58,205 bases of DNA from Streptosporangiaceae bacterium (GCA_030038495.1 JASHOV010000117.1:1-58205); one strand, 5' to 3'. Shown: positions 10,116 to 47,004, numbered from the stretch's first letter. Translations and numbers: made by a program. The notes: a model not told the origin generated them from the letters alone.

Positions 10116-11126
10116 TCAGTTCGGGAGTTCGGTGACGATGCGGCAGCCGGATGGAATCCGCTGCTCCGCCCTGATCGAGCCGCCGTGCAGCTCGACGATG
10201 GACCTGGCGATCGCCAGGCCCAGGCCCGCGCCGCCGGATCCGGCTTCGCGGGCCGCGTCTACGCGGTAGAAGCGGTCGAAGATGCGCTCGATGTCGGCAG
10301 CGGGGATGCCGGGTCCCTGGTCGCTGACCTCGATCCGGACAGCGCCCGGTGCGGGCCGGGCGGACACGGTGACGGTGCCGCCCTCCGGGCTGTGCCGGAC
10401 GGCGTTGGTGAGCAGGTTGGTCAGTATCTCGTGCACGCGTGCCGTATCGCCGGCCCCGGTCAGACCGCAGTCCGCGGTCACGGCGATACGAACATCCGGC
10501 CGCACCGGGCCAACCTCGGCCACGGCATCCTCGATCGCCTCGGCCAGCCCGAATCGCTGCGGGTTGAGGCGTACGCTGCCCGACTCAAACTGAGACAGCT
10601 CCAGCAGCTGGTCGACGAGGATGCTGAGCCGCTCTGTGCCCCTGAGCATGGCCGTGACCGCAGCCTCATCCAGTGCCTCGACACCATCGGCCAGGTTCTC
10701 CAGCCGGGCGCGGAGCGCCGCGATCGGCGTGCGTAGCTCGTGGCTGACGTTGGCGACCAGCTCGCGGCGCTGCCGTTCCGCCCGGTCCAGCTGCGACGCC
10801 ATCGTGTTGAAAGACCGCGCGAGGCTGCCCACTTCATCCTGTGCGGTCGCGGTGATTCGCTGGCTGTAGTCGCCCGCGGCCATGGCTCTGGTGGCCGCGG
10901 CCATCTGCCGCAGGGGCAGCACCATGCCGTGCGCGAGCAGCTGGATGACAACCAGGGAGATGATCAGGCCGGCGACGAAGGCAAACCGGGCGTGCACCCC
11001 GACATAGATGGCGAAGTTGATAGCGCCGACGGTCGCGGCGACGGAGCCGAGTACGACCAGCCCGAGCTTGACCTTGATCGATCGCACCTGGTCCAAAGGC
11101 CTGATGTCTCGTAGCACATGCGCCAT
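10116..11126 (-). CDS. Sensor histidine kinase, intramembrane-sensing type (2 TM with a 3-aa loop, HAMP, HisKA, HATPase)
   Basis: H-box SHELRTPIAAL, N-box LLTNAVRHS, G1 DQGPGIP and G2 GGAGLGLAIA. The two TM helices are separated only by HAR. Confidence 0.9.
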   Translation of the reverse strand: MAHVLRDIRPLDQVRSIKVKLGLVVLGSVAATVGAINFAIYVGVHARFAFVAGLIISLVVIQLLAHGMVLPLRQMAAATRAMAAGDYSQRITATAQDEVGSLARSFNTMASQLDRAERQRRELVANVSHELRTPIAALRARLENLADGVEALDEAAVTAMLRGTERLSILVDQLLELSQFESGSVRLNPQRFGLAEAIEDAVAEVGPVRPDVRIAVTADCGLTGAGDTARVHEILTNLLTNAVRHSPEGGTVTVSARPAPGAVRIEVSDQGPGIPAADIERIFDRFYRVDAAREAGSGGAGLGLAIARSIVELHGGSIRAEQRIPSGCRIVTELPN

Positions 11127-11127
11127 G

Positions 11128-11805
11128 TCAGCGGCCCTGCCCGTCCGCTCCGGCGTACCCGACGCCGTGCACGGTCCTGATCACTCCCGGGCCGCACTTA
11201 CCGCGCACAGCGCGCACGTGGGAGTCGACGGTCCGCGGGCCCGCGCCGTCGCGGTAGCCCCAGACTTCCGCGAGCAGCTCGGCCCTGGTCCGCACGACGC
11301 CGGGCGCGGCCAGCAGGTAGGCAAGCAGATCGAATTCCGTGGCGGTCAGCCCGACAAGCTGACCGCCGCGCCAGGCCCGGCGCCTGGAGATATCGACCTC
11401 GACCTCACCGGTCCGCAGCATCGTGGCCGTCTCACGTGCCGACCGTTCCGCCCGACGCAGCACGGCCCGTATCCGGGCCGTCAGCTCGCGCATGCTGAAC
11501 GGCTTGGACAGATAATCGTCCGCTCCGACCTCAAGGCCCACCACGAGATCGGTCTCCGATCCGCGAGCGGTCAGCATGATGACAGGAACTGGCCGGTCGC
11601 GCTGGATCTGGCGGCAAACCTCCAGGCCGTCAAAGCCCGGCAGCATCAGATCGAGCACCACGGCGTCGGGCTGCGCCGCTGCCACGGTGCGCACCGCGGC
11701 CGGGCCGTCGGCGGCGATCTCCACCAGATGCCCGTCGCTGCGCAGTCGGGCGGCGATCGCCGCCGCGAGTTCAGCCTCGTCCTCCACTACCACGATCTTG
11801 GCCAT
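11128..11805 (-). CDS. OmpR-family response regulator
   Basis: Receiver domain (VVVEDE...VVLDLMLPGFDG...KPF) plus a winged-helix trans_reg_C domain. Its stop lies directly next to the HK start (11126). Confidence 0.9.
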   Translation of the reverse strand: MAKIVVVEDEAELAAAIAARLRSDGHLVEIAADGPAAVRTVAAAQPDAVVLDLMLPGFDGLEVCRQIQRDRPVPVIMLTARGSETDLVVGLEVGADDYLSKPFSMRELTARIRAVLRRAERSARETATMLRTGEVEVDISRRRAWRGGQLVGLTATEFDLLAYLLAAPGVVRTRAELLAEVWGYRDGAGPRTVDSHVRAVRGKCGPGVIRTVHGVGYAGADGQGR

Positions 11806-11828
11806 GGGTCGAACCTAGGGGATCAGTT

Positions 11829-11868
11829 GTGCAGGTTTCGACCCCCGGGCTGTGCAGATTCCGTGCAG
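11829..11868. promoter_or_regulatory. Three phased GTGCAG hexamers in the divergent response-regulator / phosphonate-operon intergenic region
   Basis: GTGCAG at 11829, 11852 and 11863 (spacings 23 and 11 bp). Direct repeats are typical of OmpR-family sites. Function unproven. Confidence 0.3.
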
Positions 11869-12097
11869 AAACGCAGGTTGGAGATCGTCCGCCCGGCCAT
11901 CGCCGCGGAGATCGCCGCGCCTGATTCACCACCAAGAAACTTTAAGATTATTGATAAAACGGGGACGGCCGCGGTGCTGGCTGCGGCCTGCCGGACCGCG
12001 GTCAGCAAGATACAAGAACTCTGCTCGGTCGTACATTGCTGCGCGAGGGCGGTGGCTGTGACCATGAGAAAATCGGTCGCCAGCGCGGAGGAGGGAC

Positions 12098-13471
12098 GTG
12101 GACGTCGGCTATCAGCGGCGGGTCGGGGCGACGTTTCGTGAGGTAATTAATGGCCTCAAGCGCAACAGCCTCGCGGCGGCCGCCGATCTCGGTGTCTCCG
12201 TTGAGACCATAGACGATATTATAGCCGGGAAGTGTCGGCTCACCAGTGAGTTGATTGCCCGCGCTGCCGCTATCTGGCCGGTGAATGAGCGCGATTTCTT
12301 TCCCGTGCACGACGATGCTGCCGACGGCGCGATCGTGATGCGTGCCGTGGAGTCCGAGAAGACCAGCAGGACGTTCGCGCGCGGCGGAATCGATTACTAC
12401 GAATACCGTGATACAGCGATGAGTCGGCTCGCGATGTTTCGGCCTGAGTGGATCAAAATGCTGCACTCGGTGCCGGGAACGGACCAGGACGATCCGACGG
12501 TACAGTGGAACAGCGGGCATTTCCTGTATCAATTCACATATTTCATTGGCGCGGTCAATTACTACTACTCGGCGGAAGGCCGGCGTTACTGCGCGGCGAT
12601 GGAAACGGGTGACTCGGTGTCCGGCCTGCCGTACGCGCCGCATAGTTTCGCGTGCCGCGACGGCGCGCCAGGGATGATCCTGGCACTTACCTATGGCGGC
12701 CGTCTGCTTGGCGACGCAGCGCATGAGCTGGGAGCGCTCGGCGAGAGCCTGGCCGAGCGTTATGCCTTCGACGCATCGGGGCCCCATGCGTCGGGTTCTT
12801 TGCTCGGTGTGCAGCTGGATAACACGGGATTTACCCGCGAATGGCTTGCTCGATCCGCCGGGATCCCGCTGGCTCACCTAGAGGACCTCCTGGCCGGGGT
12901 CGCGACAGCTGGATGGGAGGAGCTCGGGACGCTAGCGGAGGCCATGCGGATCAACGTCCGTGACCTGCTCCCCGTGGTGCCCGACACGCACCACGGCGTG
13001 TCGATCCTGCGCCGCCGCGATGTGCCGCGCTGGCCGTATCCCGACGGCGACTCCCCGCACTATGTGATCGGGGCGCTCGCCGGCACGCGCGTCTGCCCCA
13101 GCTCGCGCGGCCTCGAGATCGAGGTACGCGGTACCGACGCTTCCCGCGGAATGCTGCGGACAGGCCTGCATCAGTACTGTTACGTCCTAGGCTCCGAACC
13201 CGTGCGGCTTACCTGGACCTACGACGAGCGGACGTGCTCGCGGGAGCTTGCGCCAGGTGACTCGCTATACCTCAAGCCATTCGTCTCGCACTCTTTCACG
13301 AGTTGCGATCGGCCCGGACGGATCCTCGCACTGCGGATCGGCGGGAAGGTCGCTGGTGACGCCTGGCTGGAAGCCGCCGCGATCGGCGGGTCATCTCTGC
13401 GCCGCCTCACCTACGACACCGCACAGTGGTACGAGGAAGCGGGCACCACCGCGCGGCGGGAGATCCTGTGA
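12098..13471 (+). CDS. 2-hydroxyethylphosphonate dioxygenase-like non-heme Fe(II) oxygenase (HEPD/MPnS family, two HTH-cupin repeats)
   Basis: 457 aa with duplicated HTH+cupin architecture. Putative ligands are H141-x3-Q145...H182. GGAGGAGGG RBS before the GTG. GTGA overlap with pepM. Confidence 0.8.
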   Translation: MDVGYQRRVGATFREVINGLKRNSLAAAADLGVSVETIDDIIAGKCRLTSELIARAAAIWPVNERDFFPVHDDAADGAIVMRAVESEKTSRTFARGGIDYYEYRDTAMSRLAMFRPEWIKMLHSVPGTDQDDPTVQWNSGHFLYQFTYFIGAVNYYYSAEGRRYCAAMETGDSVSGLPYAPHSFACRDGAPGMILALTYGGRLLGDAAHELGALGESLAERYAFDASGPHASGSLLGVQLDNTGFTREWLARSAGIPLAHLEDLLAGVATAGWEELGTLAEAMRINVRDLLPVVPDTHHGVSILRRRDVPRWPYPDGDSPHYVIGALAGTRVCPSSRGLEIEVRGTDASRGMLRTGLHQYCYVLGSEPVRLTWTYDERTCSRELAPGDSLYLKPFVSHSFTSCDRPGRILALRIGGKVAGDAWLEAAAIGGSSLRRLTYDTAQWYEEAGTTARREIL

Positions 13472-14391
13472 CTGCTAGCAAAGGTCGCTACCTGCGCGAG
13501 CGGCTGGCCGGCGGCGACATTGTCCGCGCGGCGGGAGCCCACGACGGGATGAGTGCGCGCCTGGTCGAACGCTGCGGATTCGACGCGGTCTGGGCGTCCG
13601 GGTTCGAGCTCTCCACGAGCTTCGCGGTGCCCGACGCCAGCATCCTCACTATGTCGGAATTCCTGGCCGCGGCACGGACGATGCATGAAGCGGTGTCCAT
13701 TCCCGTGATCGCGGATTGCGACACGGGTTTCGGCGACAGCCTCAATGTCGCGTATATGGCTCGCCGCTACGAGGCAGCGGGGATCGCGGCGGTCTGCATC
13801 GAGGACAAGGTGTTCCCGAAGAGGAACAGCTTCGCCGGAGCCCGGCACGAGCTCGAGCCCGTGGATGTCTTCCAGGAGAAGATAGCCACCGCCAAGGCAA
13901 GCCAGCGAGATGGCAACCTGCTCGTCTTCGCCAGGACCGAGTCCCTGATCGCGGGCCAGGGAGTCGCCGAGGCGCTGCAGCGGGCCGCATCCTATGCAGA
14001 GGCGGGCGCGGACGCGATCTTGGTGCACTCCAGGGCCCGTACTCCCTGCGAGCTGTTCGCCTTCACCGATTCCTGGGACCGGCCCACGCCCGTGGTAGCC
14101 ATCCCGACCAGCTACTACGATGTCACCGCGGAGGAACTGGCCAGCCACGGCGTGCGAGTCGTGATCTACGCTAACCAGGCGATGCGGGCCGGCGTCCGCG
14201 CCATGACCGAGACTCTGCGGGAGATCCGCGAGAGCGGCACCTCGGCCTCGGTGGAGGCACGGATCGCTCCCATGACGGAACTGTTCGCCATCCAGGGACT
14301 GGACCATACTGTCACGGCCCTGCCGGGCACCGGCGCCAACGGCGAGCGCACCTGGCAGCTGGCGGCGGGTCAGGCCGGTAGCCGACCATGA
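13468..14391 (+). CDS. pepM: Phosphoenolpyruvate phosphomutase
   Basis: Isocitrate-lyase/PEP-mutase fold carrying the PepM-diagnostic EDKxxxxxNS motif (CIEDKVFPKRNSF). The GTG at 13468 overlaps the upstream stop. Confidence 0.9.
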   Translation: MTASKGRYLRERLAGGDIVRAAGAHDGMSARLVERCGFDAVWASGFELSTSFAVPDASILTMSEFLAAARTMHEAVSIPVIADCDTGFGDSLNVAYMARRYEAAGIAAVCIEDKVFPKRNSFAGARHELEPVDVFQEKIATAKASQRDGNLLVFARTESLIAGQGVAEALQRAASYAEAGADAILVHSRARTPCELFAFTDSWDRPTPVVAIPTSYYDVTAEELASHGVRVVIYANQAMRAGVRAMTETLREIRESGTSASVEARIAPMTELFAIQGLDHTVTALPGTGANGERTWQLAAGQAGSRP

Positions 14392-15422
14392 CGCGGGATG
14401 TCGTGGTCTACACCGACCCGCCTTGGGCGATAGCCGATGGCGTAGGTCCGCACGCGGCGATGGCGGCCATCGAGCAGTCGTGGCTAGCGGATCTGGCTGA
14501 GCTTCGGTTCGGGCCTTATGCCGACGCGGCCTATCTGGATGGTGCCCCCCTGTACGAGGTGGTTAAGGGCGCCACTGTGCTCGCCCTGTACCGTCGGCGT
14601 GCCACGGCCGAATTGCTAGGCGCGGCGGGAGACGGGCTCCTTGCGGTGGCGAGGGCCGGCGTCGGAACCGACAACCTCAACGTCGGCCTGCTCACCGAGC
14701 GCGGCCTTCTCGCGTTCAACGTGCCCGACTACTGCGTCGACGAGGTGGCGGCTCACACTCTCGCGCTGATCCTGGCGTGGGAACGTGACGTCGTAGGCCA
14801 GCACAACATCCTGGCCGATGGCCGGTTCGATATCTACGCGGGCAGGGTGCCGCGCAGGCTGAGCGAACGCACCGCCGGCATCGTCGGCGTGGGCAGGATC
14901 GGGCGGGCCGTCGCCGCGCGGTTGCGGGTCTTCTACCGGCGGGTGCTGGGCTGCGATCCGTATGTTCACGCCGATCTGATGGCTGGTTACGGCGTGGACT
15001 GCGTAGGCATGGACGAGCTGCTGGCAGGTTCCGATGTTGTCATCCTGCACTGCCCCCTCACCGCGGAGACCGTGGGCCTGATCGGGGAAACGGCGCTTGA
15101 GAAGATGCGCCCGGGCGCATTGCTTGTCAACACGGCCAGGGGCGGCCTGGTGGAGCCGGCTCCGCTGTACCGGGCGCTCACGGAGGGAACGCTGGGGGGA
15201 GCGGCGCTGGACGTCTTCTCGCCAGAGAACCCGCATGCGGATGCGGACTGGGCGAAAGTCGTGCAGTTGCCGCAGGTCGTGGTGTCAAGTCACCGGGCAT
15301 TCCTGTCCGCGGAATCGGAACGCAGTTCGCGGCAGCGGCTGGCCCAGGGCATCGCGCATGTGCTGCGGACCCGGCAGCCCCCTCCGCCTGGCCTGGTCGG
15401 CCTCGTCGCGGCGGGGTCCTGA
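14388..15422 (+). CDS. D-isomer-specific 2-hydroxyacid dehydrogenase (3-phosphoglycerate-dehydrogenase-like; PhpE-like)
   Basis: NAD-binding GIVGVGRIGRAVA, catalytic Arg (NTARGG) and His (SSHRAF). ATGA overlap with pepM. Confidence 0.85.
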   Translation: MTRDVVVYTDPPWAIADGVGPHAAMAAIEQSWLADLAELRFGPYADAAYLDGAPLYEVVKGATVLALYRRRATAELLGAAGDGLLAVARAGVGTDNLNVGLLTERGLLAFNVPDYCVDEVAAHTLALILAWERDVVGQHNILADGRFDIYAGRVPRRLSERTAGIVGVGRIGRAVAARLRVFYRRVLGCDPYVHADLMAGYGVDCVGMDELLAGSDVVILHCPLTAETVGLIGETALEKMRPGALLVNTARGGLVEPAPLYRALTEGTLGGAALDVFSPENPHADADWAKVVQLPQVVVSSHRAFLSAESERSSRQRLAQGIAHVLRTRQPPPPGLVGLVAAGS

Positions 15423-16849
15423 TGTTCCTGAACGGCAGGCTGCAGGGTGAGCCGCGGCTGGAGGTCCGCAGCCCGTGGAACGGTGCGCTGGCCGGCACGG
15501 CAGCGATGGATTCCGCCATCGCCGTCGATCAGGCCGTCCGCGCGGCTGCCGGCTACGACAGGCGGCTGACCGGAGAGCGCCGGTCGGCAATCTTGACCGA
15601 GACCGCGGGCCTGCTCCGATCCCGGCGCGAGGCGCTGGCGTCGCTCATCACGGCCGAGGCTGGGCTTTGCTATCGAGACAGCACCAGGGAGGTGGACCGG
15701 GCATGCGCGAATCTGCGGATAGCGGCGGAGGAAGCACGGCGGATCCACGGCCAGACCATGGAGCTGACGGCCGGAGAAGAGCGCCGAATGGCCCTGACAA
15801 TCCGGGAACCCGTCGGCACGGTCGCGGCGATCACCCCCTTCAACCGGCCCCTAAACCAGGTCGTGGTGAAGGTCGCGCCGGCTATCGCCGCGAACAACGC
15901 CGTGATCGTCAAGCCCTCAGAGAAGGCACCGCTGGCCGCCTTGGAACTGGCTCAGGCACTGGTGGACAGCGGCCTGCCTGCCGAAATGATCGGCGTGGTG
16001 ACGGGTGACCCTGCCGAGGTTGGGACAGCGCTCGTCACCCACGAACTGGTCGACATGGTGACGTTCACCGGCAGCGTCGCAACGGGGGAGCGCATCGCCG
16101 CGGCCGCGGGCATGCGCAAGCTGCTCCTGGAACTGGGCGGTAACGATCCGCTGATCGTCCTCGACGACGCGGACCTCGACCGGGCAGCGGCCATCGCGGT
16201 CGGCGGAGCGTTCGGCAACTCTGGTCAGTCATGCCGCGGGGTCAAGCGCATCCTCGTGACCCCTGGCATCGCCGATCAGTTCGTCGGCCGGCTGCAGGAA
16301 CGCACGCGCACGCTGCGCTTCGGTGACCCCCGCGACCCAGCCACCGACGTGGGGCCGCTGATCACCGAGCAGTACGCGGTGGCGGTGGTCGAGGTGTGCA
16401 GGGCGGCGGTGGCCCAGGGCGCCCGGCTGCTGTGCGGCGGGCACCGTGATGGCGCCGTCGTCGCCCCCACCGTCCTGGACCACGTAGATCCACGGGCCGA
16501 CGTGGTCACCGATGAGACCTTCGGCCCGGTGGCCCCCGTGATCAGAGTCGGTTCAGCCGACGAGGCGATCGAGGTGGCCAACAGCACGAGATACGGGCTG
16601 CAGGCTGGTGTGGTCACGAACAGCTTCGACGCCTTCCTGAGCATTGCCTCCGGTCTGCGAGTGGGCGCGGTGAACCTCATGGATGGCCCCAATTTCGACT
16701 CGCCCTACGTGCCATTCGGCGGGGTGAAGAAGAGTGGGCTCGGCCGTGAAGGAGTCCGGTTCGCCATAGCGGAGATGACGACGTTCAAGACCGTCGTGCT
16801 GCCCTGGCTGCCGCCATGGCCTGGCGGCGGATGTATGCAAGCCGAATGA
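15422..16849 (+). CDS. NAD(P)-dependent aldehyde dehydrogenase (PhpJ-like)
   Basis: ALDH motifs ELGGNDP and the catalytic Cys in GQSCRG. TGATG overlap with the upstream gene. Confidence 0.85.
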   Translation: MFLNGRLQGEPRLEVRSPWNGALAGTAAMDSAIAVDQAVRAAAGYDRRLTGERRSAILTETAGLLRSRREALASLITAEAGLCYRDSTREVDRACANLRIAAEEARRIHGQTMELTAGEERRMALTIREPVGTVAAITPFNRPLNQVVVKVAPAIAANNAVIVKPSEKAPLAALELAQALVDSGLPAEMIGVVTGDPAEVGTALVTHELVDMVTFTGSVATGERIAAAAGMRKLLLELGGNDPLIVLDDADLDRAAAIAVGGAFGNSGQSCRGVKRILVTPGIADQFVGRLQERTRTLRFGDPRDPATDVGPLITEQYAVAVVEVCRAAVAQGARLLCGGHRDGAVVAPTVLDHVDPRADVVTDETFGPVAPVIRVGSADEAIEVANSTRYGLQAGVVTNSFDAFLSIASGLRVGAVNLMDGPNFDSPYVPFGGVKKSGLGREGVRFAIAEMTTFKTVVLPWLPPWPGGGCMQAE

Positions 16850-16908
16850 TGCGGGCTGGCGCATCGTCTGCCAGATCACGGCCCGGTATTGGATCAGGAG
16901 ATGCGAGT

Positions 16909-17976
16909 ATGAGCGCGCTGCGCCGGCGATTGCTGCAGGCCGAGGCAACCTGGTGGATGTCGCGGATTCTGTTGTCCAATCTGTCCATCTGGACGATGCT
17001 GATGGGCTGGGTGGCCGCAGGTCCGCGCCTGGACTCAGCTCATGTGGCCAGGCTGCTCGCGCTGTATGCCGCGTTCGCCCTGGCCGGCGGTGCGCTCTTC
17101 GTAGTCAACGACCTCATGGACGTCGAGGGCGACAAGGTCACCGCTCCGTATTTGCCGTTGCCCTCCGGGCTGCTCAGCCGCAACGAGGCACGGGCGTCCG
17201 TCGCCGTCTACTTCGCGAGCGCGCTGATCTTCCTCTACCTGGCGTGCGCCCGGTTCGGGCTGTTCGTCACCTGCCTGGCGATCATCGTGGTGGCCGCCAT
17301 GGGCTCCATGGGGTACTCCAGATACAAGAAGGAGGGGATTGTCGCCTCAGTCCTCGTGGCCGTGCCGCAGACGATCATTCCCGCCGTCATCGGGTGGCTG
17401 GTGGCGGGAGGCGGATCGGCCTGGCGGCTGGTGGCCGTGCTCAGTTATGCCGTATTCGCCGGCGTCTCGAACAACGTACTCGCCGCTCTCCGCGACGTCG
17501 ATCTCGATGCCAGTGTCGGCAATCGGACGCTGCCGGTTCGGATCGGGGCACCGGCGGCGTTCCGGCTGATCGCGAACCTCGCTTTCGCTGCGCTCGCCGT
17601 GGTCGTCGTGCTCGCGGCCACCATTAACAGCGGAGCCTGGGCCTGGCCGTTCGCTGTGATCGCCGGCGTGGTGCTGTGGCAGGGCTACCGCCTCGCCGCG
17701 GCCAGGTTCGCTCAGCCGCACCGGGGTCGCAGGCAGCGCATGGACGACCTGCGGCTGTTCAAGACGGGGGAGTACGTGCGGCATGCGGCGATGGTAGCGG
17801 TGTTCAACCCGGTGGTTGCGATCGTGGCCTTCGCCTACCTGCTCGGCGGTTTCATGATTGGGTACCGGGTCTACCATCGCCGGCTGACCAGCGGTGCCAT
17901 CCGCGACGCCATGGATCGACTGCCAGCAGCTAGCGGCGCGGGCGTGAACGACCAGTTCTCGGCACCCACAGGGTGA
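16909..17976 (+). CDS. UbiA-family integral-membrane prenyltransferase
   Basis: AGGAG lies 8 nt before the ATG at 16909. ~8-9 TM helices. First Asp-rich motif NDLMDVEGD and second motif RDVDLDASVGNRTLPV, as in DGGGP/chlorophyll/UbiA synthases. Confidence 0.75.
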   Translation: MSALRRRLLQAEATWWMSRILLSNLSIWTMLMGWVAAGPRLDSAHVARLLALYAAFALAGGALFVVNDLMDVEGDKVTAPYLPLPSGLLSRNEARASVAVYFASALIFLYLACARFGLFVTCLAIIVVAAMGSMGYSRYKKEGIVASVLVAVPQTIIPAVIGWLVAGGGSAWRLVAVLSYAVFAGVSNNVLAALRDVDLDASVGNRTLPVRIGAPAAFRLIANLAFAALAVVVVLAATINSGAWAWPFAVIAGVVLWQGYRLAAARFAQPHRGRRQRMDDLRLFKTGEYVRHAAMVAVFNPVVAIVAFAYLLGGFMIGYRVYHRRLTSGAIRDAMDRLPAASGAGVNDQFSAPTG

Positions 17977-18274
17977 GCGCCGGCACGGCTACCCGCGCCC
18001 GTGGCAGGCTGACGATGGCCGGTGAGACTGTATGGACCATAAAGGCAATTCCTGCTTAAATAGAACAGGTGGCGATTTCATACACCACGCCATCGGACGT
18101 GACCCGACCAGCAACTGGCCTTGGTGCGGCTGCCAGCTATGGGTGTACGCCCGCTGAATGGGTGCTTATTGGTATAAATCTCGCTTTTCTTTGGTTTTCG
18201 GCTTATGGCCGTCGCCTCCCCTCGCTTACTGGCACTGGCAGCGGAAAGCCAGCCGGCATGGCACGGGTGGAGAA

Positions 18275-19021
18275 ATGAGCGCGGAGCCGACGGATCATGA
18301 GCCTGTGGCCGTGCCACGGGTGATAGTGGCTGGTCCGCGGTCGAGGTGGCGGTCGGCTGTCATCGCTGCGCTCAGCGCTGATTGCGAGTCCTGGGGAGTA
18401 GGGACCGGAGACGAACTTGTCACGCAGATCGTGGCCCGGGCCGTCGACCTGATTGTGCTGGACGGCAAGCTCCTCATCGGAGACGGCCGCTGGCTGAGTG
18501 CCGTACTGCGTTTGCGCGCGGAAAAGACGCAGGTGTTGTTGCACCTTCGTGACGACCAGGAAACGGATGGTCTACTTCACCTAACCTTCCACGGCGTGTG
18601 CAGCGGAAATGATACGGCCGGGCTGGTGCGCCAGGCGGCGACGCTGCTGGGCCTGGACGGCAGGCTCTCGCCAGGCACGCCAAGCGGCCGGTACGTGTCG
18701 TACGCGCTGAATTTCTTGACTGATCATTACTCAGAACATCTTGATGTCGCTATTGTAGCCACCAGGATGTCCTTGTCTCCCGGCTATCTTGCCCGGATAT
18801 TCCGCAATGAGATGCGTATAGGAATGAGGGAGTTCGTCCTTAGGATGCGCATCGAGGCAGCCAAGCTAATTCTGGCCGAGACCGATGCCACCCTCGGAGC
18901 GGTAGCCCAGCGTTCGGGGTTCTTCGACGCCGCGCATTTCAGTCGAGTATTCCGGCGCTACGAAGGATGTACGCCAGGACAATATCGGAGAACTGCGGTC
19001 ACATATGCCCGGCATCAATAG
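18275..19021 (+). CDS. AraC/XylS-family transcriptional regulator with N-terminal receiver-like (pseudo-receiver) domain
   Basis: C-terminal AraC HTH (LSPGYLARIFRNE...FFDAAHFSRVFRRYEGCTPGQYRR). The N-terminus is CheY-like but lacks the acidic pair. GGTGGAG RBS. GC3 is visibly lower than in the neighbouring genes. Confidence 0.8.
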   Translation: MSAEPTDHEPVAVPRVIVAGPRSRWRSAVIAALSADCESWGVGTGDELVTQIVARAVDLIVLDGKLLIGDGRWLSAVLRLRAEKTQVLLHLRDDQETDGLLHLTFHGVCSGNDTAGLVRQAATLLGLDGRLSPGTPSGRYVSYALNFLTDHYSEHLDVAIVATRMSLSPGYLARIFRNEMRIGMREFVLRMRIEAAKLILAETDATLGAVAQRSGFFDAAHFSRVFRRYEGCTPGQYRRTAVTYARHQ

Positions 19022-19577
19022 CCCAGCGCCCCACACGGATCCCATCGCCGTAGTGCATGGCCGCTTTCAGCCTTTGCACATTGGTCATCTCGAGTATCTG
19101 CTCGCGGGTGCAAGCCGAGCAGCCAGCCTGATCGTAGGGATCACTAATCCCGACCCGTGGCAGACCATCGCGGAACCCACCGACTCTCAGCGAGGTGAAT
19201 CGGAGTCCAACCCGTTCACGTTTTATGAGAGGTTTCTCATGGTGGAGGCGGCGCTGCGCGAACATGGCGTTACAGACTTCCGCATCGTCCCCTTCCCTCA
19301 TGGATTCCCGGAGCGGCTGCACCATTATGTGCCCGCCGACGCGTTGTTCTTGTTCACGATCTACGACGCGTGGGGCGAGGAGAAACTGCGCCGGCTGTCC
19401 GCGCTCGGGTGGCGTACAGAGGTGCTGTGGCGGCGGACAGCGAAGGTCACCTCCGGAACCGAACTGCGCCGCCGGATGCGCGAAGGCGCTGACTGGGAGC
19501 ATCTGGTGCCCGCGGGTACGGCCAGCGTTGTCAGGGAACTGCGGCTTACCGACAGACTGCGGGAAGTCTCACGATGA
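19005..19577 (+). CDS. HxGH-motif nucleotidyltransferase (cytidylyl/adenylyl-transferase superfamily; PhpF-like candidate)
   Basis: GRFQPLHIGH motif near the N-terminus and ~190 aa, like archaeal NMNAT-type enzymes. It overlaps the AraC stop by 17 nt and the next gene by ATGA. Confidence 0.75.
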   Translation: MPGINSPAPHTDPIAVVHGRFQPLHIGHLEYLLAGASRAASLIVGITNPDPWQTIAEPTDSQRGESESNPFTFYERFLMVEAALREHGVTDFRIVPFPHGFPERLHHYVPADALFLFTIYDAWGEEKLRRLSALGWRTEVLWRRTAKVTSGTELRRRMREGADWEHLVPAGTASVVRELRLTDRLREVSR

Positions 19578-20833
19578 CGGGCAAGGTCTATATCGTCGCA
19601 TTGTGCGGGGTGGCTGATGATCCCGCACCCGGCCTCACCCCGCTGGAGCGGGCTGACACCCCGCATCTGGACGCGATGGCCGCAGCCGGGGTTACCGGCC
19701 TGCTCGACGTCGTGGGGAAGGGCATACCTCCGGAATCCGACTCCGGAGCAATGGCACTCCTCGGGTACGACCCGCTGGTGCACTACACGGGACGAGGCCC
19801 GCTTGAGGGCCTGGGAACGGATTTCCTGGATCCGGAAGCTCCCGGCAGCACGGTTGTCTTCCGGCTGAACGTGGCCAGCCATGATGCCGTACGTGACCGG
19901 CTGGACCGGCGGACTGCGCGGGACCTGGACGACAATGAACTGACCGTCCTGCTTGAGGAGGTGCGGGCCGGGGTGAGCCTGGCCGACCATGCGGCGACGT
20001 TTCAGCTCATCGGGTTCGGTCGGCACCGTGGGGTGGTGGCATTTCATAGCCGTACGCGCCCGCTCAGCGGAAACGTCACCAACACCGACCCGCAATATAC
20101 TCGTCAGGGCCCGTTCGGCGTTCCGCGCGACATACCGCTCGCCCGTGCATTTGATTGCAGCCCCCTAGATGATTCACCCGGTGCTGGTAACACGGCCGCG
20201 GTGGTCACCGCCTTCACTGCCCGCAGTGCCGATGTTATGACGCGAAGTGCGGTGAACCGCCGCCGTCGCGCGGACGGCAGGATTCCCGCCAACACGTTCC
20301 TGCTGCGCGATGGCGGCGACCATGTGCCGAGGCTCCGTCCTTTCCATGATCTTTTCGGCCGCAGTCTCGCGATTTTCGGACAGGTACCGGCCGAGCGTGG
20401 TCTCGCCCTCCTGCTGCGCGCCGCATGGCGGGATTGCAAGCGTCCCGCGGACGAACCGGAGCCACGGTATTACCAGCGGCTGGCGGACGAACTTGAGGCC
20501 GCGCCAAGCGATACCGTTTATGTCCACGTCAAAGCGGCCGATGACGCCGCCCACGACGGCGATATGACCGGGAAAGTGGCAGCGATTGAACGGGTAGATA
20601 CGCTGTTCATCCAGCGCCTGAGGGACCGGCTGCGGCCCGGAGACATCTGCGTTCTCACCGGCGACCACGCCACTCCGTGGCGCTCTCGTATTCATTCCGC
20701 CGATCCGGTGCCCGTGGCGGTGACAGGGACCGGACGGCAAGCCGACGCGGTGAGTAGGTTCAGCGAGCGCTCAGCCGTCGACGGCGCACTCGGGCGGATG
20801 CTCGCCTGCGACATGCTTGCCACACTTGAGTGA
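19574..20833 (+). CDS. Cofactor-independent phosphoglycerate mutase-like metalloenzyme (archaeal ApgM type; PhpG-like)
   Basis: The N-terminal block TPHLDAMAAAGVTGLL...PESDSGAMALLGYDPLVHYTGRGPLEGLG matches ApgM-type iPGM. The usual N-terminal DGxxD reads CGVAD here. Confidence 0.8.
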   Translation: MTGKVYIVALCGVADDPAPGLTPLERADTPHLDAMAAAGVTGLLDVVGKGIPPESDSGAMALLGYDPLVHYTGRGPLEGLGTDFLDPEAPGSTVVFRLNVASHDAVRDRLDRRTARDLDDNELTVLLEEVRAGVSLADHAATFQLIGFGRHRGVVAFHSRTRPLSGNVTNTDPQYTRQGPFGVPRDIPLARAFDCSPLDDSPGAGNTAAVVTAFTARSADVMTRSAVNRRRRADGRIPANTFLLRDGGDHVPRLRPFHDLFGRSLAIFGQVPAERGLALLLRAAWRDCKRPADEPEPRYYQRLADELEAAPSDTVYVHVKAADDAAHDGDMTGKVAAIERVDTLFIQRLRDRLRPGDICVLTGDHATPWRSRIHSADPVPVAVTGTGRQADAVSRFSERSAVDGALGRMLACDMLATLE

Positions 20834-21139
20834 AGGCCATGGAAGCGGCGGAAGATCCTGGCGCGGCGGTCGTGAGGAACTCCCGGTGCCACGCGGTCGG
20901 CGCTGCCGCCAGCTGTGGATCGGCCCGGGGTCGGAGCCGATATGTACAAGATCCGGTATTAACCGTGCATGCATTGCAGCCGCGCCGTCGTAGATAATCG
21001 TTGGCACGTGATAACACAACCGGATCTGCGAAAGGTACCGAATACTAGCCCACGGGTCATTGGAGAATATCGAGCCGCCAACGCCCTCAACTCCAAAACT
21101 CCAGTCCCGTCCCTGCTCGAATCAGGAAAGAGATATAAC

Positions 21140-22012
21140 ATGGCCTCCGAGACGGATGTGCGCGGTTACCTCGGCTCGAAGACTCAGGTTCTCATCGACC
21201 GCTACGGCCCCGGGCCGGCGATCCACTACCATTTCGGCCTGTTCGACAGTGAAGCTGGAACCTACGGGTCCTTGGCGGAGATCCGCCGGCGAATCGTTGA
21301 TTCGCAGGAACGAATGCTCGCGTTTGCCGCGGAGGTATGGGATTCCTCGTCGATATTCACCGGGAAACTCCTCGACATCGGGTGCGGGCTCGGTGGCGGA
21401 TCCATCTACTGGGCGCTGCACTACGACGTCGAGGTCACCGCCGTGACGAATGTCGCCGAACACGCGGCCGTCGTCCATGACTTCGCCGACCAAGCCGGTG
21501 TGGGTACTCGCATCCGCCCGATAGTCGCTGACTTCTGCACGTCACAGCTCGATGGACCATTCGAAGCTGCGGTAGCGGTGGAGAGCGCCTCTCAGATGCC
21601 AAAGGACGCGTTCTTCCGAAGTGCGGGACAGGCCCTGCCAGTCGGCGGATACCTGTGTATTGAGGATGGTGTCGACACCACCGCAGCCTGGAAAGAACCT
21701 GCCGGGTCCTCATGGGTGGCTCCCATAGAGAACTACTGGAAGGCAAACCTCAGCACACTGACCGGGTACGTGGAGGCAGCCGAGGCCGCCGGATTCCGGC
21801 TGGATCGCAACGAGGATGTTACCGAGAACATCCTCGAATTCTGGATCCAGAACATGGCCTGGGCCGAAGCCAAACTCGCCCAGCCGGACTTGCCGGCAGA
21901 GGAGCAGCACAAGATGCTCCAGTCCATTCGGTGGCACATGTGGATGTTCCGCGCATACCGCGACCGGGGACTCGAACAACGAGTCGTCAGATTCAAGAAG
22001 GTCCGCAACTGA
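21140..22012 (+). CDS. Class I SAM-dependent methyltransferase
   Basis: The SAM motif LLDIGCGLGGG is preceded by IHYHFGLF. RBS-like AGGAAAG before the ATG at 21140. The upstream in-frame extension to 20969 has non-coding codon usage. Confidence 0.75.
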   Translation: MASETDVRGYLGSKTQVLIDRYGPGPAIHYHFGLFDSEAGTYGSLAEIRRRIVDSQERMLAFAAEVWDSSSIFTGKLLDIGCGLGGGSIYWALHYDVEVTAVTNVAEHAAVVHDFADQAGVGTRIRPIVADFCTSQLDGPFEAAVAVESASQMPKDAFFRSAGQALPVGGYLCIEDGVDTTAAWKEPAGSSWVAPIENYWKANLSTLTGYVEAAEAAGFRLDRNEDVTENILEFWIQNMAWAEAKLAQPDLPAEEQHKMLQSIRWHMWMFRAYRDRGLEQRVVRFKKVRN

Positions 22013-22107
22013 GCAGAGCGAGGCAGATTTTCCAGAATCTCGAATGTGCCTGCTCATACTTGCGAGTCTCGGCGACGGCGGGCGCCCGTAGGGCAGAGAG
22101 GTTGGAG

Positions 22108-22980
22108 ATGATGGCCGACTCGACCATAGGTACGGCGCTCGCGCGTAACACCTTCGAGCGGGAGGCGTTCACCTACTACGACACCAAGCGCAACGATGTT
22201 CTGAACCTGGATCTGGGGGACCTCGACGGCTTCCACCATCACCACTTCGCGGTTGGTGACTTCGACCGCTCCGTTCTCAGCGAGCCGCCCGACCGGCGCG
22301 AGGCGGCCATCGGTGCCGAGATCCACCGCCTGGAGACTGACCAGGTCGACCTCATCCTGCAGACCCTGACGGGAATCAGTCCGAGCAGCCGGCTGCTGGA
22401 CGCCGGTTCCGGACGTGGCGGCACCGCGCTGCTCATCCACCGGACCACCGGGTGCCAGGTCGACGGAGTAAATTTCTCCCCCTACCAGAACGACTTCGCT
22501 CGCCGCGCCGCGCAGCGGCACGGCTACGCCGCGCACATTCAGTTCCACGATCGCAACATGACCGACACTGGCTTCTCGGACGCCTCGTTCGATTACGTGG
22601 TCAGCAACGAGACCACCATGTATGTCGATGTCTTCGAAGCGTTCCGCGAGTTCGCCAGGCTCCTGCGTCCCGGCGGCCGCTATACGCTGCTCACCTGGTG
22701 CCGCAATGACTCGGTCGCACCCGGCCTGACTGAGGCCGACGCGATCAACGCCCACTATTGCTGCCACACCCACCGCCGCAGCACATACCTCAATGCGCTG
22801 CTGGCCGCCAGTCTCATTCCCGACCAGGTCGACAACCTCACGATCCCGGCCATTCCTTATTGGGAGCTGCGCTCGGAGTCCGAGCTCGCCACCGGAATCG
22901 AACAGCTCTACCTGGACGGCTACCGCAGCGATCGCCTCAACTACATCCGCATCACCTCCCGCAAGTCCTCGACTCATTAG
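22108..22980 (+). CDS. Prenyl-diphosphate C-methyltransferase homologue (geranyl diphosphate 2-C-methyltransferase family), copy 1
   Basis: It matches remembered GPPMT blocks throughout: DGFHHHHFAVG, EIHRLETDQ, LLDAGSGRGGT, SNETTMYVDV, GGRY, PYWELRS, TGIEQLY. Confidence 0.85.
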   Translation: MMADSTIGTALARNTFEREAFTYYDTKRNDVLNLDLGDLDGFHHHHFAVGDFDRSVLSEPPDRREAAIGAEIHRLETDQVDLILQTLTGISPSSRLLDAGSGRGGTALLIHRTTGCQVDGVNFSPYQNDFARRAAQRHGYAAHIQFHDRNMTDTGFSDASFDYVVSNETTMYVDVFEAFREFARLLRPGGRYTLLTWCRNDSVAPGLTEADAINAHYCCHTHRRSTYLNALLAASLIPDQVDNLTIPAIPYWELRSESELATGIEQLYLDGYRSDRLNYIRITSRKSSTH

Positions 22981-23066
22981 CGCAGGCCGCCGAACCCCGC
23001 TCAAGAGCATCACCAGGCCGCTAAGAGCGTCGCTTGTCCAGTACCCGCACATCAAGGAGTTCTTTG

Positions 23067-23951
23067 ATGGAATCAGCTGAATCGGCAACGCGAGAAGAAG
23101 TTATCCGCAACGCTCATGACGAAACGCTCGTCAACTACTGGGACAGCAAGAAGGATGACAACATCAACCTTCTTCTCGGCAAGTCCGACGGTATCTATCA
23201 TCATCACTACGGCATCGGGGACTACGACCATTCGATCCTTGATCTCCGTAGCGAGGAGCGGGAGGCGCGCATAGCAGCAGAAATGCATCGCCTGGAAAAC
23301 GCGCAGACCGAGCTGATTCTCGAGGCACTGGGTGAGGTCGCGCCCGACGACCGCGTACTCGACCTGGGATCCGGTCGGGGTGGCACCAGCTTCATGATCC
23401 ATGACAGATTCGGCTGTTTCGTCGACGGCGTCAACATATCCCGATACCAGATCGACTTCTCGCGGCGACTAGCGGAAGAGCGCGGCGTTGCGGAAAAGGT
23501 CAAGTTCCATTACCGGAATATGCTGGCTACTGGCTTCAGCGACCACTCGTTCCAGCGCCTGGTCTCGAATGAGACGACGGCGGATTTGCTGGACCTCTTC
23601 GAGGCGTTCGGTGAGTTCTCGCGCGTGTTGGCACCCGGGGGCCGGTACGTCGTGTTTACCTGGTGCTACAACGACATGACCAATCCGCCTCGTACTGAAA
23701 TCGAAGAGATCGACCGCCACTACCCGGGCAATCACATTCACTCGCGCAGCACCTACTTCAAAGCGCTCGCCGCCAACGGCCTCGTGCCCTGCAAGGTTGC
23801 CGACCTCACCGCCGAGGGAATCCCATACTGGGATTTGCGGTCACGATCCGACCTGCGGACGGGAGTTGAAGAAGCATTCCTGACGGCCTACCGGGAGAAC
23901 AGGCTGAATTTCATGCTGATCGCGGCGGACCGCGCCTGCGGTCACGGTTGA
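23067..23951 (+). CDS. Prenyl-diphosphate C-methyltransferase homologue (GPPMT family), copy 2
   Basis: AAGGAG lies 7 nt before the ATG at 23067. GPPMT-like blocks DGIYHHHYGIG, EMHRLENAQ, VLDLGSGRGGT, GGRY, IHSRSTYF, IPYWDLRS, TGVEEAF and MLIAADRA. Confidence 0.85.
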   Translation: MESAESATREEVIRNAHDETLVNYWDSKKDDNINLLLGKSDGIYHHHYGIGDYDHSILDLRSEEREARIAAEMHRLENAQTELILEALGEVAPDDRVLDLGSGRGGTSFMIHDRFGCFVDGVNISRYQIDFSRRLAEERGVAEKVKFHYRNMLATGFSDHSFQRLVSNETTADLLDLFEAFGEFSRVLAPGGRYVVFTWCYNDMTNPPRTEIEEIDRHYPGNHIHSRSTYFKALAANGLVPCKVADLTAEGIPYWDLRSRSDLRTGVEEAFLTAYRENRLNFMLIAADRACGHG

Positions 23952-23977
23952 TCGCACCTCTGCGGAGGGAGTAACTG

Positions 23978-25072: not shown

Positions 25073-25095
25073 CCAATGGATGGAAATCGATCGCG

Positions 25096-38794: not shown

Positions 38795-38908
38795 CGAGAT
38801 CATGACCTGGCGGCTGCGGCCAGCGCCCTCAGCGGCCAGTCATTGACGGCCCGCGTCCCGATCTGCACTATTAACAGGAACATGCCGGTTAACGGGTGAA
38901 GCTTCCGT

Positions 38909-40591: not shown

Positions 40592-40594
40592 TCC

Positions 40595-41995: not shown

Positions 41996-41998
41996 TGC

Positions 41999-42027
41999 TT
42001 GACATATGCTGAGGATCACACTGAGAT
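41999..42027 (+). promoter_or_regulatory. Candidate promoter of the aminotransferase-to-racemase operon (TTGACA-N17-TGAGAT)
   Basis: Perfect -35 hexamer and a weak -10, about 55 nt upstream of the TTG start at 42082. Confidence 0.3.
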
Positions 42028-42081
42028 TGGTAAGACCGTGATGATCCGCTCGGAATCCATCAATGGTGAGGAGTTCGGACG

Positions 42082-43419: not shown

Positions 43420-43423
43420 CGCC

Positions 43424-44407: not shown

Positions 44408-44418
44408 GGAGCTCTCGG

Positions 44419-46106: not shown

Positions 46107-46123
46107 CCTAGAGGGGAAACGTC

Positions 46124-46999: not shown

Positions 47000-47004
47000 C
47001 GCCC

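Follow-up and report, generated by a model that had tools for sequence, protein, structure and literature searches.

When a gene cluster encodes enzymes that would make and activate phosphonoformate (PF) together with a membrane prenyltransferase, and none of those that would convert PF into a phosphinate, the obvious question is: where does the PF go? The only natural role known to us for PF, which is in clinical use as the antiviral foscarnet, is that of a transient intermediate on the way to phosphinothricin; in phosphinothricin-type clusters, PhpG, PhpH and PhpI turn cytidine 5'-monophosphate (CMP)-activated PF (CMP-5'-phosphonoformate, hereafter CMP-PF) into a C-P-C phosphinate. The question is raised by a stretch of 58,205 nucleotides from a Streptosporangiaceae bacterium (GCA_030038495.1 JASHOV010000117.1:1-58205; this entire stretch is referred to as the window), in which the first-pass annotation had singled out the interval 14388-20833 as a set of relatives of PhpE, PhpJ, PhpF and PhpG that might divert activated PF to a different fate, with a UbiA-type prenyltransferase as the candidate partner. 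The genes of this interval are real; as a unit, the interval does not stand, being the middle of a larger block at 12098-27494 that, in Pfam and NCBIfam scans, comprises 14 genes, all on the + strand and uninterrupted. Start and stop codons overlap at 14388/14391, where the ATG of the PhpE-like gene overlaps the stop codon of the PepM gene, and at 15422, 19574/19577 and 26289/26292; these overlaps, together with the common direction of the genes, mark the original interval as the middle of a larger operon-like unit. We lean, with modest confidence, towards the view that this block is a single biosynthetic gene cluster, that its type is distinct and conserved, and that it makes a lipid-linked PF conjugate.

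The argument starts with what is absent. As the reference, we used a complete phosalacine-type cluster, that of Kitasatospora phosalacinea NRRL B-16230 (locus L012), the Pfam content of which includes an aconitase, an iron-dependent alcohol dehydrogenase (Fe-ADH), a cupin, PhpE, PepM, Ppd, PhpF, PhpG, the enolase PhpH, the PEP-mutase-like PhpI, PhpJ, the radical-SAM/B12 protein PhpK, the HMGL-like Pms, the adenylation-thiolation protein PhsA, a GNAT protein and an Abhydrolase_3 protein. Pfam scans of the 50-odd large open reading frames (ORFs) of the window revealed no enolase, second PEP-mutase, HMGL-like, aconitase, condensation/PP-binding or radical-SAM/B12 domain. In six-frame tblastn searches of the window, PhpH, PhpK, Pms and Acn of L012 retrieved nothing better than E = 0.15, the sole match of PhpI was the PepM gene (30% identity), and with PhsA, a stand-alone AMP-binding gene some 11 kb past the end of the block (38900-40591) was the only match (E = 8e-5). 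Pat and Dea of the phosphinothricin tripeptide (PTT)-type clusters, likewise, have no counterpart in this cluster. Thus, the earlier statement that the window lacks PhpH, PhpI, Pms, a non-ribosomal peptide synthetase (NRPS) and a P-methylase is borne out by both kinds of search. The flanking DNA, where an enolase or a carboxyphosphonoenolpyruvate (CPEP) mutase might have been expected, yielded neither across the 58-kb window nor within 10 kb in five sister loci.

These sister loci emerged from a survey of 49 genome loci with PhpG relatives, supplemented with metagenome contigs, that were searched by tblastn with the proteins of the window and of L012. Six independent loci, henceforth UbiA-type loci, combine PhpG with a prenyltransferase of this kind: the window itself, L001/L006 (a Pseudonocardiaceae metagenome-assembled genome, MAG), L003 and L057 (both from metagenomes), L007/L055 (a Micromonosporaceae MAG) and L047 (Micromonospora sp. 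ATCC 39149). In all six, the UbiA gene directly follows PhpJ on the same strand; the two genes overlap by 4 nt in L057 and are at most 80 nt apart in the others. PhpH and PhpI are found within 10 kb in none of them, contigs of 50-260 kb among them. The comparison set, for which the ±10 kb around PhpG were considered, consists of the 40 bacterial loci outside this type that come with enough flanking DNA. All 40 contain PhpH, mostly directly downstream of PhpG, those that have PhpE or PhpJ have PhpI too, and most show the canonical gene order phpC-phpD-phpE-ppm-ppd-phpF-phpG-phpH-phpI-phpJ; a UbiA gene of this kind is present in 0 of the 40. The contrast in PhpH adjacency (0/6 vs 40/40) corresponds to a Fisher p = 1.1e-7, a value that is not corrected for shared ancestry. 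These counts strongly support the proposal that the PF branch leads away from the CPEP/phosphinate route and has UbiA as its new partner.

The five sister loci share the contiguous, co-directional order (MFS)-PhpF-PhpG-(Ppd)-HEPD-(PepM, Fe-ADH)-PhpE-PhpJ-UbiA, where the gene for an exporter of the major facilitator superfamily (MFS) lies ahead of PhpF in L001, L003, L055 and L057, as it does in the related locus L004. The dehydrogenase gene is always located between HEPD and PhpJ, even where there is no pepM within 10 kb; the available DNA of L003, L047 and L057, the last of which is an 11.7-kb contig, contains no pepM. In the window, the order is HEPD-PepM-PhpE-PhpJ-UbiA-AraC-PhpF-PhpG, and lipid genes are inserted among those of the PF branch, namely, UbiA between PhpJ and PhpF and, between PhpG and Ppd, three methyltransferase genes (MT1 to MT3) together with a gene for a short-chain isoprenyl diphosphate synthase (IDS). 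In four of the loci (L001, L007/L055, L047 and L057), UbiA follows PhpJ and there is no IDS or methyltransferase nearby. The AraC-family regulator has a 76% identical orthologue ahead of PhpF in L004.

What, then, could the prenyltransferase do? The protein scores 88.2 bits on PF01040, against a threshold of 34.2, and both Asp-rich motifs are present (NDLMDVEGD and DVDLD). The top fold matches of its AlphaFold2 model (pLDDT 92, pTM 0.89) are DGGGP synthase and archaeal UbiA, and the nearest solved relative in terms of both sequence (3.6e-7) and fold (TM 0.65) is the archaeal DGGGP synthase (6M31/7BPU), with an identity of about 16-17% over the structural alignment. On the DGGGP synthase equivalog models NF009521 and NF009522, the protein reaches only 44 and 41 bits vs cut-offs of 296 and 353; judging from these scores, it resembles the DGGGP synthase family but is not a member. 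DGGGP synthase O-prenylates a glycerol-phosphate ether, and moenomycin MoeO5, the fold of which differs from that of UbiA, performs O-prenylation on a C3 glycerate unit next to a phosphate ester; by analogy, the window enzyme may, like DGGGP synthase, O-prenylate a C3 glycerol/glycerate unit at a hydroxyl adjacent to a phosphate ester. In a search of 5.8 billion proteins, the UbiA subfamily turned out to be a small actinomycete set of 30 proteins with an invariant basic cluster, RGRxQRxxDxxxxK, and a metagenome scan with the UbiA alignment detected 3 loci, one of which was already known.

The neighbours of UbiA suggest the nature of the lipid. In phmmer searches against the PDB, MT1 matches the farnesyl diphosphate (FPP) C6-methyltransferase 9TB4 (3.5e-56) and BezA (7FBH, 7.7e-53), and the other two match geranyl diphosphate (GPP) 2-C-methyltransferases, namely, MT2 with 4F84 at 1e-61 and 3VC1 at 1.2e-59, and MT3 with 4F84 at 1.1e-72 and 3VC1 at 8.7e-70; all three are, by homology, prenyl-diphosphate C-methyltransferases. 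The chain length of their substrate could not be read from the position equivalent to W210 of BezA, which is uninformative since Trp occurs in both GPP- and FPP-specific references. The IDS scores 304 bits on the farnesyl/geranyl-diphosphate synthase model NF042416, under the cut-off, matches 3LK5 at 1e-70 and the FPP synthase 8F8F at 8.5e-67, and has a Phe at position -5 from the DDIID motif. In L066, where UbiA is 89% identical, UbiA, the three methyltransferases and the IDS stay together. The simplest reading of this arrangement is that the donor for UbiA would be a C-methylated geranyl or farnesyl diphosphate. Methyltransferases of these families are known from systems of noncanonical terpenoid biosynthesis, such as GPPMT (2-methylisoborneol), BezA (benzastatin) and the C6-FPP enzyme 9TB4; here, they stand beside an IDS in a phosphonate cluster and no terpene cyclase was found in the window, so that the methylated prenyl diphosphate would, unlike in those systems, go to UbiA.

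In other loci, the UbiA gene keeps different company. A cassette that consists of a fatty acyl-AMP ligase (FAAL)-like AMP-binding protein, UbiA, an acyl-CoA dehydrogenase, two NAD_binding_4 reductases, an acyl carrier protein and two PEP-utilizer-type phosphotransferases (a PEP-utilizers and a PPDK_N/PEP-utilizers protein), to which some loci add the large and small subunits of aconitase, a TenA/haem-oxygenase-like protein and P450s, is located at 2461-13381 in L060, 8241-18668 in L061, 8274-19731 in L068, 16428-21308 in L003 and 8959-11672 in L057. In the PF loci L003 and L057, the cassette follows UbiA; it also occurs without PF genes. Apparently uncharacterised, it might supply the same UbiA subfamily with an allylic (di)phosphate that is derived from a fatty acid and is not isoprenoid; that the cassette and the IDS-methyltransferase set are interchangeable lipid-supply modules is a speculation.

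The PhpG-like protein is the point at which the two chemistries would meet. The PhpG family is far wider than the phosphinothricin producers (428 matches at E <= 1e-5), and the UbiA-type PhpGs form a separate sequence group within it; the closest PhpG in genome collections is 58% identical to that of the window, and the closest relatives (80-89%) come from soil-metagenome contigs. The window protein starts with MTGKVYIVALCGVADDP, where the Thermoplasma ApgM (3IDD) has VLDGLGDRP. The altered metal site that had been noticed here, CGVAD in place of DGxxD, is real; what does not hold is that it is special to this locus, since Cys replaces Asp (LCGVAD/LCGxxD) in 127 of the 136 aligned PhpG-family sequences, including every locus of the PTT/phosalacine type and of the H-phosphinate type, and we have, accordingly, dropped it as a locus-specific trait. 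The Asp is kept only by archaeal ApgM and by a separate set of bacterial loci with PhpF-like, ApgM-like and enolase-like genes that lack PhpE, PhpJ and HEPD, so that the Cys-for-Asp replacement can be regarded, from the alignment, as a hallmark of PF-associated PhpG in general.

Other features set the UbiA-type PhpGs apart. Only four fixed substitutions in 419 residues define the group relative to the other PF-associated PhpGs, namely, F175Y, P325A, G326A and C369W. Positions 325 and 326 lie between D323 and H327, and position 369 lies between D364/H365 and H374; in the alignment to 3IDD, the flanking residues coincide with Asp/His motifs conserved in ApgM, which presumably correspond to the two-metal site of cofactor-independent phosphoglycerate mutase. 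C369, which gave way to Trp in the UbiA-type group, is conserved even in archaeal ApgM. Apart from C11, which replaces the first metal-binding Asp of ApgM, the ligands and the nucleophile region are retained (D15, S55, D323, H327, D364, H365 and H374), as are all the conserved arginines that the two cluster types share with archaeal ApgM (R74, R97, R112, R113, R116, R152, R231 and R245). From this retained arginine set and the four substitutions, we infer that the enzyme probably keeps an anionic, phosphoglycerate-like substrate, with a remodelled pocket. NCBI annotates the PhpG of one UbiA-type locus (P0006) as 'CMP-5'-phosphonoformate--3-phosphoglycerate phosphonoformyl transferase'.

Upstream of PhpG, the block contains the entire early PF branch, with eight of the eight components present (PepM, Ppd, PhpC, HEPD, PhpE, PhpJ, PhpF and PhpG). 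The assignment of the four genes that were recognized at the outset to the families of PhpE, PhpJ, PhpF and PhpG was confirmed with Pfam and NCBIfam, and tblastn identities to the L012 orthologues are 52% for PhpE, 56% for PhpJ, 61% for PhpF, 53% for PhpG, 46% for PepM and 40% for Ppd; over the entire branch, identities to the L012 counterparts span 38-62%, except for HEPD, which belongs to another HEPD class. The PepM sequence includes EDKVFPKRNS at residues 126-135, that is, the EDK(X)5NS motif that serves as a criterion for PepM (bioRxiv 10.1101/2020.11.04.368217), and Ppd is encoded in the same operon; on TIGR02320, PepM reaches 292 bits, under the cut-off of 319.55. The PhpE-like protein is 61-62% identical to those of the intact UbiA-type loci, 53% to that of L047 and 52% to PhpE of the php-order loci. 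For the PhpJ-like protein, which is 54-56% identical to PTT-type PhpJ, the best NCBIfam model is phosphonoacetaldehyde dehydrogenase (TIGR03250, 527 bits). The PhpF-like protein is 61-62% identical to the PTT/phosalacine PhpF, 65-72% to those of other UbiA-type loci and 87% to those of L004/L005; the cytidylyltransferase activity of PhpF is supported by work with lysates and recombinant enzyme (bioRxiv 10.1101/2025.05.01.651723). The PhpG-like protein is 51-53% identical to PhpG of the PTT-type loci. Ppd scores 297.5 bits on TIGR03297 (cut-off 312.5), and the best NCBIfam model for the Fe-ADH is Phn_Fe-ADH (TIGR03405, 185 bits).

The cupin protein requires a closer look. In phmmer searches against the PDB, it matches the methylphosphonate synthase (MPnS) of Nitrosopumilus (6B9S, 1.2e-110) slightly better than the HEPD of Streptomyces albus (6B9R, 1.5e-104), with PhpD (3G7D) at only 3e-9, and alignment to 6B9S and 6B9R shows the H/Q/H metal triad (GHFLYQ...APH). 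As in the S. albus HEPD, the positions of a Phe and an Ile of MPnS, which we take to be Phe162 and Ile184, are occupied by Tyr (AVNYYY) and Gly (DSVSGLP). This Tyr-Gly motif has been described as diagnostic of class II HEPD (PMC8976061). A methylphosphonate synthase was, therefore, rejected as an assignment despite the slightly closer match, and because of the motif, the predicted product is hydroxymethylphosphonate rather than methylphosphonate. Since Ppd and a PhpC-like Fe-ADH share the operon with PepM, HEPD, PhpE and PhpJ, the route from phosphoenolpyruvate (PEP) to PF is fully encoded in the block, with all the enzymes assigned by homology.

Based on these assignments, the following pathway can be envisaged. 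PepM would convert PEP to phosphonopyruvate, Ppd would decarboxylate it to phosphonoacetaldehyde, and the Fe-ADH would reduce the latter to 2-hydroxyethylphosphonate, which the class II HEPD would turn into hydroxymethylphosphonate. The PhpE-like dehydrogenase would yield phosphonoformaldehyde and the PhpJ-like enzyme PF, to be activated by the PhpF-like protein to CMP-PF. The PhpG-like enzyme would then, as proposed for PTT, attach the phosphonoformyl group to a (phospho)glycerate-type acceptor at one of its hydroxyls and, without an enolase and a CPEP mutase to lead on to a phosphinate, UbiA would join the PF-glycerate-type unit to an allylic lipid that, in the window, would be the C-methylated geranyl/farnesyl chain supplied by the IDS and the three methyltransferases. 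PF would, in this way, end up in a lipophilic conjugate, in the simplest case phosphonoformyl-glycerate that bears a (methyl)prenyl chain in ether linkage. That the product is specifically this ether, which would make it the first natural lipid conjugate of PF and a phosphonate-terpenoid hybrid, is a tentative proposal that we consider less likely than not. One argument favors the alternative order, with UbiA acting first on a common C3 acid and PhpG then accepting the lipidated substrate, because the UbiAs of L060, L061 and L068 occur without PF genes, in a cassette shared with L003 and L057. The coordinates and assignments of the genes are compiled in Table 1.

Table 1. Genes of the block at 12098-27494 of the window, with the matches or notes on which each assignment is based.
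Gene product	Position	Strand	Match or note
Class II HEPD (HTH-cupin dioxygenase)	12098-13471	+	phmmer vs PDB; predicted 2-hydroxyethylphosphonate (2-HEP) -> hydroxymethylphosphonate
PepM, PEP phosphomutase	13426-14391	+	PF13714 3.8e-56; true start may be GTG 13468
PhpE-like D-2-hydroxyacid dehydrogenase	14388-15422	+	PF02826/PF00389; predicted hydroxymethylphosphonate dehydrogenase
PhpJ/PhnY-like aldehyde dehydrogenase	15422-16849	+	PF00171 1.8e-144; predicted phosphonoformaldehyde -> phosphonoformate
UbiA-superfamily intramembrane prenyltransferase	16909-17976	+	PF01040 7e-25; alternative start 16816
AraC-family regulator	18158-19021	+	PF12833/PF00165
PhpF-like CTP:phosphonoformate cytidylyltransferase	19005-19577	+	PF01467 CTP_transf_like; HIGH motif
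PhpG-like phosphonoformyl transferase, ApgM fold, UbiA-type group	19574-20833	+	PhosphMutase + Metalloenzyme; NF038358
MT1, prenyl diphosphate C6-methyltransferase-like (BezA/C6-FPP methyltransferase family)	20969-22012	+	phmmer vs PDB
MT2, GPP 2-C-methyltransferase-like	22108-22980	+	phmmer vs PDB; ATG 22108 chosen, preceded by GAGAGG
MT3, second GPP 2-C-methyltransferase-like	23034-23951	+	phmmer vs PDB
IDS, short-chain trans-prenyl diphosphate synthase	23978-25072	+	PF00348 1.7e-49
Ppd, phosphonopyruvate decarboxylase	25096-26292	+	TPP_enzyme_N/C domains; TIGR03297
PhpC-like Fe-alcohol dehydrogenase	26289-27494	+	PF00465/PF25137; predicted phosphonoacetaldehyde -> 2-HEP

Several observations weigh against a lipid-linked PF conjugate. 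Past the formation of CMP-PF, the steps are deduced from homology and gene context, and the PhpG reaction is a proposal even in PTT biosynthesis. On the model NF038358 (phophono_PhpG), the PhpG-like protein scores 544.1 bits vs a cut-off of 545, that is, 0.9 bit short, the next-best model being apgM with 280 bits. Homologues of UbiA that are 76% (L060) and 49-50% (L061/L068) identical lie in the fatty-acid-type cassette without PF genes, within the DNA available, and because of these, the acceptor of UbiA need not contain PF, the more so as close homologues appear to be paired with different lipid-supply modules. The main weakness is here: interchangeable modules would mean that close UbiA homologues take different lipids. 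In near relatives, PF genes have decayed (remnants in L066, L067 and L004, stops in the PhpG gene of L047). Finally, the genome may hold PhpH and PhpI genes at another place, given that our view spans 58 kb here and 10 kb per side in the relatives.

This last point leads to a split phosphinate pathway, with PhpH and PhpI (as well as Pms and PhpK) encoded elsewhere and with UbiA, the methyltransferases and the IDS being either tailoring enzymes or unrelated. The window PhpE, PhpJ, PhpF and PhpG are, indeed, 51-62% identical to those of the PTT/phosalacine types, and the NCBI name of one UbiA-type PhpG is that of a phosphonoformyl transferase. We regard such a pathway as quite improbable, however, because the PhpG-PhpH adjacency that holds in all 40 other loci is lost in six independent ones, with PhpI gone as well, and PhpG is remodelled, with fixed substitutions beside the metal ligands; furthermore, UbiA is operon-linked to PhpJ. 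A valinophos-like route, in which phosphonolactate would arise from phosphonopyruvate through the 2-hydroxyacid dehydrogenase, without any PF being formed, had been put forward as another way to read the locus. The dehydrogenase belongs to the same D-2-hydroxyacid dehydrogenase superfamily as VlpB, and the classifier of Li and Horsman named such genes 'VlpB homologs' in a similar Streptomyces rimosus cluster (PMC8942020). Nevertheless, this route is not favored and seems to us highly improbable: Ppd, the Fe-ADH and the class II HEPD share the operon, the dehydrogenase is 52% identical to the php-order PhpE and keeps its constant place in the order HEPD-PhpE-PhpJ, the PF-using PhpF and PhpG are conserved, and Li and Horsman themselves proposed PF for the S. 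rimosus cluster (PMC8942020).

Two further possibilities concern the fate of PF itself. The block might be made of two adjacent, unrelated pathways, one ending with PF, CMP-PF or phosphite, and the other, with UbiA, the IDS and the methyltransferases, making a prenylated or homoterpenoid metabolite. The abiotic breakdown of CMP-PF to phosphite (bioRxiv 10.1101/2025.05.01.651723) fits such a scheme, as do the UbiA subfamily members without PF genes in L060, L061, L062 and L068, and the L066 locus, where UbiA, three methyltransferases and the IDS are kept and the PF genes are only remnants. All the same, we find this improbable, inasmuch as UbiA follows PhpJ in all six loci with intact PF genes, four of which have no IDS or methyltransferase nearby, PhpG, for which a pathway ending with PF or CMP-PF would have no use, is kept and conserved in all six, and the PF and lipid genes are interleaved in the window. 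It is also conceivable that the cell envelope is decorated, with CMP-PF as an activated donor, in the role that CMP-AEP plays in other bacteria, from which a membrane phosphonolipid or a surface polymer linked to a polyprenyl chain would be built, and with UbiA as the enzyme for the lipid anchor. Phosphonates that tailor the cell surface are commonly activated with a cytidylyl group (PMC6697681), the solved relative nearest to UbiA is a membrane-lipid synthase, and no obvious resistance gene was seen. We nonetheless consider this unlikely given the MFS exporter ahead of PhpF in five loci, the pathway-specific AraC regulator, the patchy and decay-prone distribution, the dedicated C-methylated short prenyl chains, which are typical of secondary metabolism, and the lack of glycosyltransferase or polymer-export genes in the block. 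Taken together, the exporter in the sister loci, the AraC regulator and the patchy, decaying distribution lean towards secondary metabolism.

How does this cluster compare with known systems? The PTT/phosalacine clusters, represented by L012, have in common with it the route from PepM to PhpG, that is, to CMP-PF and phosphonoformyl transfer, and the Cys-for-Asp PhpG. The present cluster differs in the gene order and in lacking PhpH, PhpI, Pms, Acn, PhpK, NRPS, Pat and Dea; its HEPD is of class II (MPnS-like), whereas theirs is of class I, and it adds UbiA, the IDS and three prenyl-diphosphate methyltransferases, along with the four PhpG substitutions. The H-phosphinate-type php clusters, such as that of Nonomuraea candida NRRL B-24552 (L027), also have the PF branch without a P-methylase or NRPS, but keep PhpH and PhpI beside PhpG, both of which are missing here. 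The argolaphos (alp) cluster of S. monomycini shares a class II Tyr-Gly HEPD followed by oxidation of hydroxymethylphosphonate, and a nucleotidyltransferase (PMC8976061); it transaminates phosphonoformaldehyde to aminomethylphosphonate and has no prenyl chemistry, whereas here, PF and CMP-PF are indicated by the presence of an aldehyde dehydrogenase, PhpF and PhpG. The S. rimosus gene cluster family (GCF) 782, which we compared by description, combines homologues of PhpC, 'VlpB', PhnY and HEPD, with PF as a proposed intermediate; it is the subject of a passing remark only, with no product known and no mention of UbiA, PhpF, PhpG or a lipid module, and neither UbiA (PF01040) nor PhpG figures in the main text of that paper (PMC8942020). 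In the literature searched, we found no description of a PF-UbiA cluster type, of its product or of a prenylated phosphonate, the S. rimosus remark being the nearest. Thus, the PF branch and each of the enzyme families are already known, and it is the product class that is probably unprecedented.

Other PhpG neighbourhoods deserve mention in their own right. Many php-order loci have PhpH and PhpI and no PhpK or PhsA within 10 kb and are, hence, of the H-phosphinate type (L011, L014, L017, L018, L025, L027, L030-L032, L035, L037, L038, L041, L044 and L054); their hosts include Nonomuraea, Streptosporangium, Plantactinospora, Actinoplanes, Solirubrobacterales and others. Five loci (L028, L039, L042, L043 and L045) have PhpF-like, ApgM-like and enolase-like genes and lack PhpE, PhpJ, HEPD and PepM; the PhpG-like match lies at about 10.0-11.3 kb, and the ApgM-like protein keeps the ancestral Asp. 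In Streptomyces L043 (6675-14270), this set is flanked by PEP-utilizers_C, DHH phosphoesterase, AIR-synthase-related (SelD/ThiL-like) and NUDIX hydrolase genes, and the class may represent a different pathway from a CMP-activated acid to an enol ester. L058 (80-6536) has a PhpG that is 80% identical to that of the window, then a two-domain glyoxalase/4-hydroxyphenylpyruvate dioxygenase-like protein and a class I/II aminotransferase, followed by Ppd (76%) and the Fe-ADH (80%), with the methyltransferases and the IDS missing and the contig cut just upstream of PhpG; its gene content suggests a further member of this cluster lineage, with different tailoring. As for the decayed loci, remnants of 29-47 residues of HEPD, PepM, PhpE and PhpJ are found in L066 (392-888) before an intact UbiA-MT-MT-MT-IDS set, only the first ~130 residues of PhpG are left in L067 (13402-13793), beside an MFS gene, L004 has two Ppd remnants of ~30 residues (8151-8337), and the PhpG gene of Micromonospora sp. 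ATCC 39149 (L047, 10001-11249) contains three in-frame stops, which could reflect a pseudogene or errors in the draft sequence.

The surroundings of the block in the window can be described briefly. Upstream, the block is flanked by a divergent two-component system and a DUF4153 membrane protein, and downstream, by a convergent methyltransferase gene and sugar-utilisation genes. A 377-codon ORF at 11008-12141 (+) is probably a spurious high-GC frame, with no Pfam match and an overlap with the response-regulator gene at 11128-11805 (-). Within the block, the AraC, PhpF, PhpG and methyltransferase genes have a lower GC at third codon positions (0.66-0.72) than most other genes of the window (0.76-0.88), and the overall GC falls to 0.61-0.63 at 18000-24000; this composition suggests that the 18000-24000 segment and the HEPD-to-UbiA segment have separate histories of acquisition or recombination. 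A scan of 11.5-28.5 kb for promoters and terminators gave counts not above those in shuffled sequence, and no tRNA genes were found in the window. A second co-directional gene set, which may be a separate small-molecule cluster, is located at 38900-48285 and encodes an AMP-binding enzyme, an MFS transporter, a DegT/DnrJ-type aminotransferase, a sulfotransferase, a short-chain dehydrogenase/reductase, a methyltransferase, a 295-aa protein without a Pfam match and a DAO-type FAD oxidoreductase; upstream of it, on the other strand, there are genes for a GntR regulator and an ABC ATPase.

A cluster type that builds and activates PF without the enzymes of the phosphinate route implies a second natural fate for PF. 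A PhpG/PhpF annotation is, by itself, no predictor of a phosphinothricin-like product. The four group-specific residues of PhpG provide a handle on its still-unproven reaction and on the choice of the acceptor, and the linkage of prenyl-diphosphate C-methyltransferases to a transferase instead of a cyclase would be a new enzyme pairing. We know of no phosphonate natural product that is prenylated, so that a prenylated phosphonate, if this is what the cluster makes, would be a new class among the phosphonate natural products. Such a conjugate would be a mimic of polyprenyl diphosphate or of moenomycin's lipid-phosphoglycerate pharmacophore, would act on enzymes that use prenyl diphosphates or on those of the cell wall, and would be the natural counterpart of the synthetic alkylglycerol-foscarnet prodrugs.

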